Part shown: positions 9,483-15,448 of the stretch, piece by piece
Layout: the number at the start of each line of letters is the position of its first letter
Numbering within the stretch: the first letter of the stretch is position 1
NCBI GenBank assembly: GCA_021159525.1
Contig: JAGHEC010000092.1
Coordinates: forward strand, 1-27,378
DNA: 27,378 nucleotides
Reading direction: 5' to 3'
From: Deltaproteobacteria bacterium
Lineage (GTDB): Bacteria > Desulfobacterota > DSM-4660 > Desulfatiglandales > Desulfatiglandaceae
Position numbers and translations under genes: made by a program
Notes under the pieces: model-generated
Databases searched by the model: none
Told to the model about the DNA's origin: nothing
Seen by the model: the letters and a program-made list of their open reading frames with translations, nothing else

Positions 9483-12431
9483 ATGAGCGAGCAATTAACA
9501 GTGAAACAATTGACCGAGCGGGTCAGGGCACTGGAAGAACAGATCGCAAGGCGCGAAGAGAGTGAAAGGACCCTTCAGGAAAGCAAGGCATGGTTGTCGC
9601 AGGTCCTCCAGGAGATACCCATTCCCACCTTTGTGATTGACCGCGAGCATCGGGTAACCCATATCAACAAGTCCTTCGAGACCCTTACCGGCATCTCCGC
9701 AAAGGATATTCTCGGCACCCGAAATCAGTGGAAGGCCTTTTATCCCACTGAGAGACCGACCATGGCCGACCTGATCCTGGATAATGCCTCGGAAGGCGAC
9801 ATCGCCAGGTATTACAAGGGTGGGTATCAGAAATCGGCCCTCCTGGAGGGAGGCTACCAGTCGGAACGTCTGTTTCGCCACCTCAGGGATGGGAGCCGGT
9901 GGCTCTTCTTTACTGCATCGCCCTTAAAGGATGCATCAGGAAAGCTGATCGGCGCCATTGAGACGCTTCAAGACATCACCGAACAAAAGAAGGCTGAGCT
10001 GGCCCTCAAAAAATCAGAGCGTCGCATGCGAACCCTTCTGGATTTTGTTCCCTATCCGATCGTGGTATTTACCCTGACAGGCCGGGTATACTACCTGAAC
10101 CCGGCCTTTACCGAAACATTCGGCTGGACCTTGGATGAATTGGAAGGAAAGACCATCCCCTATACGCCCCCGGGCCTTGAAGAAGAAACCGGCAAGGCCA
10201 TCAGGGAACTGCTGGAAAAGAAGGTCATTCTTCGACACGAAACCAAGCGGCTCACAAAAGACGGCCGGATCCTGGACGTGGTAATGAGGGCCGTGGTTTA
10301 CTCCGAGGACAAGAATGAACCGGCAGGAGAGCTGGTGCTGTTGAGGGATATCACCCGCGAGAAAAAGATCGCCCGCATGAACCAGACCATCCTCCGTTTC
10401 AGCACCTCTCTCCATGAGTATCCCGAGATGGAAAATCTCCTGGACTATATCAGCGCTGAGATCAAGCAGCTCCTGGATGCCGAAGGGGGCCTCGTGGTCC
10501 TTCTGGATGAAGAAAATCAGGAGCTTTACTACAAGGGCGCTGCATTTGACGACAATATAACCCAGGAGCGGATAAAGGAGATCCGATTCCCCGCGGACAG
10601 AAGCGTGGCTGGAAAGGTCATCAGGACAGGTGAACCGATCGTTGTTCCGGATACGTCAATGGAGCCGGATTTCTTTCCCGGCGTGGACAAAAAACTCGGC
10701 TATCATACCCGGAACATCTTAGAGGTCCCGCTGAAAAGCGGCGACCGGATTATCGGAGCACTGTGCGCACGCAACAAGAAGGACGGGAATTTCGACGAGA
10801 CAGATCTTGAATTGTTGAACATGATGGCCGGGACCGTTGCCCTGGCCATAGAGAACGCCAGGTTTTCCAAGGAAATCATAGAGGCCTACCGCACCAACGA
10901 AGCGCTCCTCAGAATCAGTCGTGCCCTCCCGGAATACCCTGAACTGGAGCCGCTCCAGGACTATATCAGCCAGGAGGTCAAACGGCTTCTGGATTCAGAG
11001 GGGGCGCTTGTGATCCTGCTGGATGATGAAAAACAGGAGCTCTACTTCATAGGCGCGGCCTATGATGATACAGCCACGGAGAAACGGATCAAGGAAATCC
11101 GCTTCCCCCTTGACGAACTGGTGGCAGGAAAGGTTATCCGGACAGGCAAGCCTCTCATCGTATCCGACACCGCCACAGATCGGAAGCTTCACAGTGAGAG
11201 GGACAAGAAGCTTGGTTATCATACCCGCAATCTGCTCCTGGTGCCCTTGAAAAGCAAGGATCGCATTATCGGGGTCTTGTGCGCCATCAACAAAAAGGGA
11301 GACGAGCCTTTTGACCAGGCTAATGTGGAGCTGCTCAGCATGATTGCCGGAACCGTGGCCCTTTCCATTGATAACGCCCGATTTGCCGAGGAATTGAAGC
11401 GGGCCTATATCGAGGTGAGCAGTATGAACCGGGCCAAGGACAAGGTAATCAACCACCTCTCCCATGAATTGAAGACCCCTGTGTCGGTCCTGTCAGGCTC
11501 CCTCAGCATACTTGAGAAACATCTAAAACAGCTTCCCACGGACAAATGGAAAAACACCATTGCCCGGAGCAAGAAAAACCTGGAGCGCATTATAGAAATT
11601 CAGGGTCAGGTGGAGGATATCATGCGGGAACGGCAATACCGGTCCCACGGTGTTTTGACCCAATTGCTTCGGGAATGTGCGGATGAGCTGGAAACACTGA
11701 TCGCGGAGGAGGTTGGAGAAAACGCGGTGGTTGAGACCGTCCGAAAGAAGATTGACGACCTCTTCGGCCCCAAGAAGCTGGAGCCCAAAGAATCGGCCCT
11801 GGACCGGACCGTCAACCAAAGGATTGAAGCCCTTGAGCCCCTGTTTTCACATCGACAGGTCCACATCGAGCGCCGACTCGAACCTGCGCCGTCTGTCTGC
11901 ATGCCCCTGGATCCTTTGCATAAGATCATTGACGGGCTTATCAAAAATGCCATTGAAAATACCCCGGACGAAGGAAAGATAGAGATTACGGTCAGGCAAA
12001 GGGACGGGGGTGCCGAACTGGTGGTGCGCGACTACGGAGTGGGAATCATCGAAGAGGATCAACGGCGCATATTCGATGGCTTTTTTGCCACCCAGGACAC
12101 AATGGCCTATTCCTCCAAACGGGCCTTTGACTTCAATGCCGGAGGCAAAGGAGCGGATCTGCTGCGCATGAAAATCTTCTCCGAACGATACGGGTTTGAA
12201 ATCCAAATGGAATCGACCCGGTGCCAATACATACCCACAAGCACCGATGTTTGCCCTGGACGAATCAGCGAGTGCGCCTATTGCAAAACCAGAGAAGATT
12301 GTTTCCAGTCAGGGGGGAGCGCCTTTACTGTTTATTTTCCGGCCAAGGGAGAAGCCGAATCGCTGTCTGCCTCCCATAATGCCTGGATCCGGCAGCTCTC
12401 CGACAGGGCCGTTGAAGAAAAGGCATCGTGA
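9483..12431 (+). CDS. Cytoplasmic sensor histidine kinase, PAS-PAS-GAF-GAF-HisKA-HATPase, with atypical G2 box and Cys-rich insertion
   Basis: Coiled-coil N-terminus. Two PAS/PAC units (HINKSFETLTG...QDITEQK; YLNPAFTETFGW...RDITREK) and two GAF repeats (VPLKS.DRIIG.LCA.NKK). H-box LSHELKTP, N-box LIKNAIE, G1 RDYGVGI, G2-like GGKGADL. No TM segment seen. Confidence 0.92.
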   Translation: MSEQLTVKQLTERVRALEEQIARREESERTLQESKAWLSQVLQEIPIPTFVIDREHRVTHINKSFETLTGISAKDILGTRNQWKAFYPTERPTMADLILDNASEGDIARYYKGGYQKSALLEGGYQSERLFRHLRDGSRWLFFTASPLKDASGKLIGAIETLQDITEQKKAELALKKSERRMRTLLDFVPYPIVVFTLTGRVYYLNPAFTETFGWTLDELEGKTIPYTPPGLEEETGKAIRELLEKKVILRHETKRLTKDGRILDVVMRAVVYSEDKNEPAGELVLLRDITREKKIARMNQTILRFSTSLHEYPEMENLLDYISAEIKQLLDAEGGLVVLLDEENQELYYKGAAFDDNITQERIKEIRFPADRSVAGKVIRTGEPIVVPDTSMEPDFFPGVDKKLGYHTRNILEVPLKSGDRIIGALCARNKKDGNFDETDLELLNMMAGTVALAIENARFSKEIIEAYRTNEALLRISRALPEYPELEPLQDYISQEVKRLLDSEGALVILLDDEKQELYFIGAAYDDTATEKRIKEIRFPLDELVAGKVIRTGKPLIVSDTATDRKLHSERDKKLGYHTRNLLLVPLKSKDRIIGVLCAINKKGDEPFDQANVELLSMIAGTVALSIDNARFAEELKRAYIEVSSMNRAKDKVINHLSHELKTPVSVLSGSLSILEKHLKQLPTDKWKNTIARSKKNLERIIEIQGQVEDIMRERQYRSHGVLTQLLRECADELETLIAEEVGENAVVETVRKKIDDLFGPKKLEPKESALDRTVNQRIEALEPLFSHRQVHIERRLEPAPSVCMPLDPLHKIIDGLIKNAIENTPDEGKIEITVRQRDGGAELVVRDYGVGIIEEDQRRIFDGFFATQDTMAYSSKRAFDFNAGGKGADLLRMKIFSERYGFEIQMESTRCQYIPTSTDVCPGRISECAYCKTREDCFQSGGSAFTVYFPAKGEAESLSASHNAWIRQLSDRAVEEKAS

Positions 12432-13393
12432 GGATCTCCGGGCAGAGGCGCCTGCACCCTTCCATGCAACGCTACAGAGATTTCAATACCTATCTGAGAG
12501 AGATCTTCGGCGAACGGGTCCAGAAGATATCCCTGGATGCAGGGCTGAGTTGCCCTAACCGAGACGGAACCATTTCCACGAAGGGGTGTCTTTTTTGCGA
12601 CCGCCGGGGATCGGGTACCGGCGCCTTCGCAGACAAAGGCCTCTCAATTGACGAGCAGATTATCCTGGCAAAGAAAAATATCCAGCGGCGCTACAAGGCA
12701 CGGAAATTTATCGCCTATTTCCAGTCATTCACCAATACCTACGGCCCTATCCCCCGACTCAAATCCCTTTATGACCGGGCCCTGGCCCACCCGGATATGG
12801 TGGGGCTGTCTGTAGCCACACGACCTGACTGTGTGGACAAGGACGTACTGGCACTCATCCGCTCCTATCAGAGGGATCGCCTTGTGTGGCTTGAGTATGG
12901 TCTCCAATCGTCTCACGATGCAACACTCCGGCGCATCCAACGAGGCCATGATGCGGCCTGCTTTGAAAGGAGCGTTCGAATGGCCGCGGCCCGGGGAATA
13001 AACATATGCGCCCACATCATCCTGGGACTTCCCGGCGAAGACCGCGACATGATGCTTGAGACCGCCCGGTATCTGTCGCGCCTTCCTGTTCAGGGGGTCA
13101 AGATTCATCTCCTGTACGTGGTCAAGGGAACCCCCCTGGCCCAGCTTCATGACCGAGGTGAATTCAGGTGCCTGGAGCGGGAGGAATATGCAAACCTGGT
13201 GGTGGACGTCCTGGAGCTGCTCCCCCCCGATATGGTGATTCAGCGACTCACCGGCGATCCCCCACGATCGGAACTGGCGGCCCCAACATGGGCGCTGGAA
13301 AAACAGACCAATTTAAGGTGTATCCAGGATGCCCTTGAAAGGAGAAGAACATGGCAGGGGAGGCTTTTTCAGGGATCTACTGCGCAAAGATGA
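12428..13393 (+). CDS. Radical SAM protein, TIGR01212/YhcC-like family
   Basis: KISLDAGLSCPNRDGTISTKGCLFC (CX11CX2C), YFQSFTNTY, ATRPDC, LEYGLQS, HIILGLPGE, QRLTGD. GTGA overlap with the kinase stop; ATG 12463 is an alternative start. Confidence 0.9.
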   Translation: MRISGQRRLHPSMQRYRDFNTYLREIFGERVQKISLDAGLSCPNRDGTISTKGCLFCDRRGSGTGAFADKGLSIDEQIILAKKNIQRRYKARKFIAYFQSFTNTYGPIPRLKSLYDRALAHPDMVGLSVATRPDCVDKDVLALIRSYQRDRLVWLEYGLQSSHDATLRRIQRGHDAACFERSVRMAAARGINICAHIILGLPGEDRDMMLETARYLSRLPVQGVKIHLLYVVKGTPLAQLHDRGEFRCLEREEYANLVVDVLELLPPDMVIQRLTGDPPRSELAAPTWALEKQTNLRCIQDALERRRTWQGRLFQGSTAQR

Positions 13394-13917
13394 CAATCGG
13401 CCGGCTCCACATCTATCTGGCATCTACAGAAAGGGGGGCGCTCCGGGTAGGCCTTGGGCTGGACGATCACTTGCCCCCTGCTCAGTTTTTCAGACGGGTA
13501 TTCCCGGACCTGCAGCTCATTCAAGATCTCCGGATGAATCAACCCCTCGCCGATGCCGTGGAGGCATGTTTACACAACAGGCCCCCGAAGAGACACCTTC
13601 CCCTCCATGTCTCCTTCACCCCGTTTCAGAAACGGGCGCTGGAAGCAGTGGCGGCCATACCCTTTGGCCAGACACGAACCTATGGGGCAGTGGCCTCGGC
13701 AATGGGAAGCCCCCAAGGCGCCAGGGCCGTGGGACAGGTTATGGGGAAAAACCCGCTGCCACTGATCTTTCCGTGACATCGCGTGGTGGCTGCCGGGGGT
13801 CTTGGCGGTTTTGGAAGCGGCCTGAATGTGAAACGCTGGTTGCTGGACTATGAGGCGGTTTTTCTTGAAGAACAGGGTTATTTATGTGGTTCGCCCAGCT
13901 TTTCCCGAAGGGCCTGA
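13351..13917 (+). CDS. ogt: Methylated-DNA-protein-cysteine methyltransferase (Ogt/MGMT family), probable selenoprotein with Sec at TGA 13774-13776
   Basis: FQKRALEAVAAIPFGQTRTYG...[48 protein letters not shown]. The TGA falls at the C of PCHRV and the conserved C-terminus continues in frame to TGA 13915-13917. GGAG RBS precedes ATG 13351; ATG 13390 is an alternative start. Confidence 0.85.
13788..13810 (+). promoter_or_regulatory. Candidate bacterial SECIS element
   Basis: GGCUGCCGG-GGGUC-UUGGCGGUU: 9-bp stem (4 G-C, 5 G-U) with a GGU(C)-containing apical loop, starting 11 nt after the UGA. Confidence 0.65.
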
Positions 13918-14423
13918 TCCAGGGCGATCTTGTATTCTGCAGACCCGGGGGTCAGCGACTGGTTTTGGGCCAATTGGACGATGATTTCACTTTCCACCTT
14001 TTCGAACTGACTGCGGCTCTGGCTGATGACGCGATCGACGGCATGATAGATTTCTTCATCCGTGCCGTAAATCTCAATAACATCCGGATCGTTGATAAGG
14101 ACTTCCATCAGATACTGGGTCATATACAGGGAATAGGGATTGGGGTGCGGAACCAGGTTACGGATGGGCGAAACAAAGTATCTGAAATCAAACTCGGAGC
14201 TGTTGAGGGCCATTTTCAGGCCTTTGAGGAGGGAGTCGGAAACAGCCGCTGCATTGTCGCTTTCAATGATTTTCTCTTCCAATAAGGTCTGACGCAGTTT
14301 ATTGTGGATCTCGGGAAGTTTGAACCGGAAAAATCTTCCTTGTTGAAAGGCCCTCTTTTTCTCCTGCCTCTCCAGCCTGTTAATTAACTTGTCCTGAACC
14401 CTGCCCGAATCTCGTGTATACAT
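13878..14423 (-). CDS. Hypothetical protein (181 aa)
   Basis: Long open frame with protein-like composition. ATG 14423 lies just downstream of the FmdB-like stop, avoiding the overlap implied by start 14486. Confidence 0.75.
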   Translation of the reverse strand: MYTRDSGRVQDKLINRLERQEKKRAFQQGRFFRFKLPEIHNKLRQTLLEEKIIESDNAAAVSDSLLKGLKMALNSSEFDFRYFVSPIRNLVPHPNPYSLYMTQYLMEVLINDPDVIEIYGTDEEIYHAVDRVISQSRSQFEKVESEIIVQLAQNQSLTPGSAEYKIALDQALREKLGEPHK

Positions 14424-14439
14424 GAAAACCCTTTGCCGC

Positions 14440-14745
14440 CTATTCCTTGCTCTTGGAAGGCGTAGGCGCTTTGCTTTTGGGCTCACTGGCCTGGGAGCTT
14501 ACGGTTGTATCTTTACCCCCCCCGGAACCCTTTTGCTTGCCTCCTCGATACCCGGTGTTCGACTTGGAGGCATAGTCAGTCACGTACCAGCCTGTTCCTT
14601 TCAGATGAAATGTGCTTTGGGAAATGAGTTTTTTGATCTGATGAGAATGACACGCTTCGCATTCGGTAATGGGCGGATCTGAAAATTTCTGTAAGACCTC
14701 CATATGGTGTCCGCATGCATCGCATTCATATTCGTAGATCGGCAT
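14440..14745 (-). CDS. FmdB-family zinc-ribbon protein (CxxC...CxxC)
   Basis: [13 protein letters not shown]...CEACHS...[13 protein letters not shown] is the characteristic family pattern, followed by a low-complexity S/K tail. Confidence 0.9.
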
Positions 14746-15371: not shown

Positions 15372-15448
15372 TGGTGGCGGTGACTGGATTTGAACCAGTG
15401 ACTCTACGGATATGAGCCGTATGCTCTGACCAACTGAGCTACACCGCC
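15372..15448 (-). tRNA. tRNA-Met (CAT), probably elongator
   Basis: rc = GGCGGTGTAGCTCAGTTGGTCAGAGCATACGGCT-CAT-ATCCGTAGAGTCACTGGTTCAAATCCAGTCACCGCCACCA, 77 nt with encoded CCA. G1-C72 is paired and there is no GGG/CCC anticodon stem, so it is not the initiator. Ile2 (lysidine) identity is not formally excluded. Confidence 0.95.

Follow-up and report, generated by a model that had tools for sequence, protein, structure and literature searches.

Evidence for a UGA-encoded selenocysteine at the catalytic position of an O6-alkylguanine-DNA alkyltransferase in an uncultured Desulfobacterales bacterium

The gene at positions 13351-13917 of the forward strand is, with high confidence, a genuine selenocysteine-containing O6-alkylguanine-DNA alkyltransferase (Sec-MGMT/Ogt), in which a UGA-encoded Sec replaces the catalytic Cys. 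It lies in a stretch of 27,378 nucleotides, hereafter the window, which belongs to a metagenome-assembled genome (MAG) of 3.06 Mb, distributed over 476 contigs and 89.7% complete. A first-pass annotation of the window had read the gene as a Sec-MGMT with the Sec at residue 142 counted from the ATG at 13351, and this reading is now supported by the Sec machinery of the genome, the relatives of the gene, the selection acting on it, a downstream hairpin and independent assemblies. What the analysis shows, as described below, is a coding frame with a conserved UGA, a downstream hairpin, the Sec machinery of the genome, purifying selection and the AGT fold.

The DNA at 13771-13785 (+) reads CCG TGA CAT CGC GTG, and the TGA occupies exactly the place of the catalytic Cys in the PCHRV motif, in agreement with the motif and coordinates of the first-pass annotation. 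Translated from ATG 13351 with TGA taken as U, the frame yields an MGMT of 188 residues that terminates at a second TGA (13915-13917), with 46 codons between the internal TGA and this final stop, the same count as was originally given. Translation table 11 divides this frame into a 141-residue ORF (13351-13776) and a 44-residue ORF (13783-13917). The extent of the complete CDS (13351-13917, +; 188 aa plus stop, with the internal TGA read through) is based on this translation, on matches to PF01035 and TIGR00589, on an AlphaFold model and on the conserved N-terminus. The latter, M-A-G-x-x-F-x-x-I-Y-C among relatives, backs the start at 13351 and favours it over an alternative ATG at 13390 (in an ATGA overlap with the upstream stop), which was rejected. 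At the other end, a non-conserved tail of about 18 residues (171-188; 13861-13914, +), delimited by the stops of relatives and by a drop in pLDDT to about 50, overlaps by 40 nt the end of a convergent DUF507 ORF (13878-14486, -). In same-genus relatives the MGMT ends 2-4 codons past LLxYEA, which suggests that the ancestral stop has probably been lost here.

Concerning family membership, the read-through protein matches PF01035 with 103.9 bits (cut-off 27) over residues 91-170, covering profile positions 1-81 of 81 and spanning the TGA, and TIGR00589 (ogt) with 92.1 bits (cut-off 46.4). The corresponding C-terminal DNA-binding and active-site domain (13621-13860, +), defined by the profile match and the alignments, carries Y111, R125, N134, U142, H143 and E168, equivalent to human Y114, R128, N137, C145, H146 and E172, with the register checked on PDB alignments. 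Y111, R125 and N134 do not vary in a 47-sequence alignment that includes full-length Cys homologues, and P141, position 142, H143, R144, V145 and E168 are conserved at 90% or above; the helix-turn-helix (HTH) and the arginine finger are thus intact, as had been claimed. The UGA codon (codon 142; 13774-13776, +) aligns to the catalytic Cys of 4wxc, 1sfe and 1eh6 (C145 of human AGT) and of 48 full-length database homologues, and its reading as Sec also draws on TGA, TGC or TGT in relatives and on the independent assemblies.

The PDB sequence search retrieved M. tuberculosis OGT, E. coli Ada-C (residues 15-169 aligned), Sulfolobus OGT and human AGT. The AlphaFold model of the read-through protein has a pLDDT of 92.1 and a pTM of 0.85, and its top Foldseek matches are 1sfe (E 5.8e-12, TMt 0.78), 4bhb, 4zye and 1t38, over 161-172 columns; the best structural matches are full-length two-domain AGTs, including M. 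tuberculosis OGT, Sulfolobus OGT and human AGT (1eh6). The N-terminal AGT domain (13375-13620, +) shows a beta sheet at residues 9-37 and helices at 43-48 and 61-74, as judged from the secondary structure of the model and from the full-length structural match to 1sfe, 4bhb and 1eh6. The protein therefore displays the features expected of an AGT: PF01035 above threshold, an acceptor residue within P-U-H-R-V, the HTH and arginine finger residues, and the two-domain fold, alpha/beta in its N-terminal and helical in its C-terminal half. By analogy with the family, the alkyl group would be transferred stoichiometrically from O6-alkylguanine DNA to the protein. An alkyltransferase-like (ATL) protein was considered and rejected, since the codon is TGA and not TGG or GCN, the N-terminal domain is complete and ATL structures give only weak partial matches.

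The host genome contains all four components that the first-pass annotation had proposed to look for. The genes selA (610.8 bits), selB (398.3 bits) and selD (366 bits) score above their curated cut-offs, as does a tRNA-Sec with anticodon TCA (73.6 bits) on contig C202. The selD gene (L018) has its own in-frame TGA (GSG-U-ASK), and three FdhA-like genes (L077, L078 and L079) and four MvhD/FlpD genes (L081, L083, L084 and L086) carry one in-frame TGA each, at classic Sec positions. The genome is hence rich in selenoproteins, with at least eight other TGA-bearing genes of the FdhA-like, MvhD/FlpD and SelD types. TGA is the ordinary stop of 6 of the 19 long ORFs of the window, which, beside the Sec machinery and the selenoprotein genes, argues for a standard code with Sec recoding; an altered code in which TGA means Trp or Gly was rejected on the same count.

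A sequencing or assembly error could have turned TGC or TGT into the TGA, a misreading at 13776 that had been raised as a concern, and the idea draws its plausibility from a source MAG that is fragmented and of modest coverage. Independently assembled Logan contigs from three other studies of hydrothermal-vent or marine sediment, however, span the gene with an identity of at least 99%; their differences lie at 13440, 13580, 13587 and 13748, with none at 13774-13776, where they keep the TGA. As the same codon is also TGA in about 27 other genomes, this explanation can be regarded as effectively refuted. A search of RNA-seq runs for the gene found none holding it.

Relatives of the gene were examined in 60 related genomes. 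Among the best 30 loci, codon 142 is TGA in 21 and TGC or TGT in 9, and the peptide downstream of it is conserved in all 30. A further six TGA forms were found in named MAGs whose label is Desulfobacterales, Desulfobacteraceae or Deltaproteobacteria, which brings TGA at this codon to about 27 relatives from several Desulfobacterales families. Given 21 of 30 best loci and six named MAG loci with the same codon, the TGA is not a chance event. The frame beyond it is maintained by selection: in 20 genes of the Sec clade, mean pN is 0.187 and mean pS 0.682 for the 27 codons that follow the UGA (pN/pS about 0.27), against 0.216 and 0.714 for the 50 codons that precede it (pN/pS about 0.30). Selection at the protein level is thus equally strong after the apparent stop as before it. 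The comparison that the first-pass annotation had called for accordingly finds TGA or TGC/TGT at codon 142 with a conserved downstream frame under purifying selection, and the case it had named as fatal, a TGA unique to one strain followed by relaxed selection, is absent.

These data also bear on the idea of a pseudogene, or of a true truncated protein of 141 residues devoid of an active site. Gene callers do stop at 13776, and among the 120 best database clusters the annotated protein breaks off immediately ahead of the active-site codon in 71, the very truncation by automated pipelines that had been anticipated. Against truncation stand the 27 in-frame codons past the TGA, which in 20 genomes are under the same purifying selection as those upstream, and the persistence of the TGA across several families. 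Furthermore, this is the sole PF01035 gene found in the host genome (89.7% complete), and same-genus genomes of 97-100% completeness likewise yield no second match. We consider truncation or decay extremely improbable. It should be noted that three of the truncated homologues (P0098, P0099 and P0112) terminate in ...LIFA instead of ...LIFP, which would correspond to an A-U-HRV active-site variant lacking the usual Pro.

In the maximum-likelihood tree a single clade (99/95 support) gathers 27 Sec and 3 Cys rows; the clade reaches across four or more GTDB families of the order and has a sister group made up solely of Cys forms. Across 250 evenly sampled genomes of the phylum, Cys forms predominate. 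The topology requires at least 4-6 changes of Sec/Cys state. Two further Sec forms fall in other, distant Ogt clades, each with a different downstream peptide and its own downstream hairpin: L067 (G154:C61), which reads …VP-U-HRVLGAGGALTGF, and L073 (G024:C1), which reads …VP-U-HRVIGSDGGLVGF and stands beside another alkyltransferase copy in the same genome. Their positions point to separate Cys-to-Sec changes. Conversely, L039 (G049:C58) is a Cys (TGC) form nested within the Sec clade that partly keeps the hairpin (GCUGCC...GGGCGGG), and this retention suggests a Sec-to-Cys reversion.

A SECIS-like hairpin lies at 13789-13809 (+), within the A-A-G-G-L-G-G codons, and was identified from pair counts, synonymous rates and the geometry of other selenoprotein genes. 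Its stem is formed by GCUGCCGGG and CUUGGCGGU, with the apical sequence GGGGUCU; it begins about 12 nt past the UGA and occupies nt 16-36 counted from the U of the UGA. Over 21 Sec forms, 88.9% of the cells are paired, versus 29-52% in slid registers, and three pairs show compensatory change, from G-C to A-U or U-G; in the Cys orthologues (n=7) pairing amounts to 60.3% of cells. In the Sec forms pS is 0.45 in the hairpin codons versus 0.83-0.86 in the flanks, and in the Cys forms 0.75 versus 0.74-0.88, so the suppression is confined to Sec forms. Such suppressed synonymous change is the signature of an RNA element overlaid on the coding sequence. The conservation of the hairpin is nevertheless partly confounded by coding constraint, since the GGF codons are conserved in Cys forms too.

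The geometry of the hairpin is comparable to that of the selD, FdhA and MvhD hairpins of the same genome, which in eight selenoprotein genes start 12-20 nt from the U of the UGA. The apical GGUCU is found at nt 22-26 in FdhA2 and FdhA3 versus nt 25-29 in the MGMT gene, that is, 3 nt farther from the UGA than in the host FdhA genes; E. coli fdhF has its GGUC at the apical position matching FdhA2 and FdhA3. Single-sequence folding downstream of the TGA gave structures no more stable than shuffled controls (z +0.84 and z +0.44), hence the support for the hairpin comes from the comparative data, i.e. pair counts and synonymous rates. An Rfam scan of the window returned one tRNA only and no SECIS family match. 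The gene thus shows what is expected of a selenoprotein gene, namely an in-frame UGA opposite Cys with the frame conserved beyond it, a downstream stem-loop (about 11 nt being the usual criterion, with a G-containing apical loop), and a host with the Sec machinery.

The mechanism that we propose would operate in an uncultured Desulfobacterales bacterium of hydrothermal-vent sediment. SelB carrying Sec-tRNA(Sec) would bind the hairpin about 12 nt downstream of UGA-142, inside the AAGGLGG codons, and Sec would be inserted at the usual catalytic Cys site to give P-U-H-R-V, so that selenium would actually be incorporated at position 142. From what is known of the family, the HTH and the arginine finger would then flip the alkylated guanine out of the helix, and the alkyl group would be moved irreversibly to the selenolate, yielding Se-alkyl-Sec in a single turnover. 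Compared with Cys, Sec may be more nucleophilic, have a lower pKa and rely less on activating residues. SelB-dependent decoding is usually inefficient. Such inefficiency fits poorly with a protein that is consumed stoichiometrically, and it counts against the Sec-MGMT reading.

A different product would result if the UGA were decoded mainly by a near-cognate or mis-acylated tRNA, with Trp giving PWHRV (the motif of the ATL damage sensors) and Cys an ordinary MGMT, or if an alternative product were made depending on selenium. The residue inserted at UGA-142 cannot be told from sequence alone, the fold is common to ATL proteins, which do turn up among the weaker matches (3gva), and the spacing of the MGMT hairpin is off by 3 nt from that of the host FdhA genes. 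On the other hand, the Sec machinery is complete and serves at least eight genes besides this one; only TGA forms combine a conserved hairpin with reduced synonymous change, and read-through with Trp or Cys would need no such element; lineages that want Cys encode TGC or TGT; and the N-terminal domain and full catalytic network of true AGTs are retained. We therefore regard decoding as Trp or Cys, or a selenium-dependent alternative, as highly unlikely, and keep insertion of Sec as the preferred reading. Sec could moreover alter the economics of the reaction, either because the Se-alkyl adduct is resolved and the protein or its selenium recycled (multi-turnover or selenium-neutral use), or because selenium supply switches the output between the full enzyme and a truncated or Trp-containing, ATL-like product; this is a speculative proposal to which we give little credence.

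The suspicion that a Sec-MGMT may not be wholly new proved justified. The first was predicted in 2005 in Carboxydothermus hydrogenoformans, CHY0809 (ABB14497.1), and was then called unique and 'most likely evolved very recently' (PMC1287953). Later surveys counted 2 Sec versus 8 Cys MGMT in Olavius symbionts (PMC1976440) and 1 Sec versus 2,879 Cys MGMT in GOS (PMC2398784), and Sec-MGMT is included among the computationally predicted selenoprotein families (PMC9312934, PMC13188914). In the literature it is hence a rare curiosity, known from one C. hydrogenoformans gene, two in Olavius and one in GOS (PMC1287953, PMC1976440, PMC2398784), and the main texts of BSepDB (PMC13326102) and of a paper on marine Deltaproteobacteria (PMC8318568) make no mention of the family. 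As in CHY0809, which we compared through its published description, the present gene combines PF01035/COG0350, a UGA at the catalytic Cys, a stem-loop just downstream (reported in the case of CHY0809) and a host with the full Sec machinery, and both are computational predictions only. The hosts differ, a Firmicutes for CHY0809 and Desulfobacterales here, and, in contrast to the view of 2005, the Sec form here fills a deep, multi-family clade and occurs in two further Ogt clades.

With the Cys AGTs (E. coli Ada-C 1sfe and Ogt, M. tuberculosis OGT 4bhb, human AGT 1eh6) the protein shares the two-domain fold (TM up to 0.78), the helix-turn-helix, the arginine finger, the Tyr, the Asn hinge, P-x-H-R-V and the Glu of the H-bond network, and by analogy a suicide, single-turnover mechanism would be expected for both. 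It differs from them in the nucleophile, predicted to be Sec here and Cys in theirs, in a post-active-site loop that is one residue shorter than the HRVIGASGKLTGF of Cys AGTs, and in the residue two positions before the nucleophile, which is Phe or Tyr in Sec-MGMT and Ile in most Cys forms. The ATLs (S. pombe Atl1 3gva, E. coli YbaZ) have in common with it the PF01035 C-terminal domain and damage binding by base flipping, but they have a single domain, carry Trp or Ala in place of the Cys and are devoid of transfer activity, whereas the present MGMT has two domains; their matches to it are far weaker (E 1.5e-6 in sequence, TMq 0.36 in structure).

The first-pass annotation knew of no biochemical test, and for natural Sec-MGMTs the literature indeed yielded none; the statement does not extend to the engineered human enzyme, AGT C145U, which protects ada/ogt-deleted E. 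coli from MNNG (Haruna et al. 2014, PMC4150793). This protection indicates that a selenolate is able to act as alkyl acceptor. The U145 enzyme also tolerates N137A, a change lethal to the Cys enzyme (PMC4150793), though natural Sec forms keep the equivalent Asn, N134, as an invariant residue. Both the engineered and the natural form carry Sec at the same catalytic position; the former is artificial, with Sec inserted at UAG by EF-Tu and no SECIS, unlike the natural UGA and hairpin.

Most known selenoproteins are redox enzymes with many turnovers. A natural Sec-MGMT is thus an unusual use of selenium, since MGMT is a stoichiometric, self-inactivating DNA-repair protein. The novelty of the present gene is modest, as the family has been predicted since 2005 and this is a well-supported new member. 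What is new, as far as the sequences tell, is a large, old and syntenic Sec clade of sulfate-reducer-type Desulfobacterales, a deep group throughout which the Sec form is the usual and apparently the sole AGT. To this come predicted Sec forms from two more Ogt clades, and a well-defined candidate SECIS within the AAGGLGG codons. New as well is the systematic mis-annotation of Sec-MGMT as a 141-residue fragment. An entire Desulfobacterales lineage would keep as its only alkyltransferase a Sec-MGMT, although inserting Sec is costly and inefficient and the protein is presumably spent after one use. The breadth and synteny of the Sec clade, and the Sec forms of the other Ogt clades, point to a lasting selective advantage of the selenolate acceptor. 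The clade supplies many natural sequences for a kinetic comparison of U, C and S variants, and may be of practical use for annotation pipelines and for the engineering of faster SNAP-tag-like labelling proteins.

A final point concerns the gene neighbourhood. An ordinary tRNA gene lies about 1.5 kb downstream (15375-15448, -; Rfam RF00005, 73.1 bits) and was rejected as the tRNA-Sec, which sits on another contig. Upstream, a conserved neighbour encodes a TIGR01212 MnmL/YtqA tRNA-modification radical SAM protein (12428-13393, +; 360 bits), and the last 43 nt of this neighbour (13351-13393) double as the beginning of the MGMT gene; to our knowledge the two genes have no functional link. The order MnmL/YtqA, MGMT and convergent DUF507 is conserved in Sec and Cys relatives alike.
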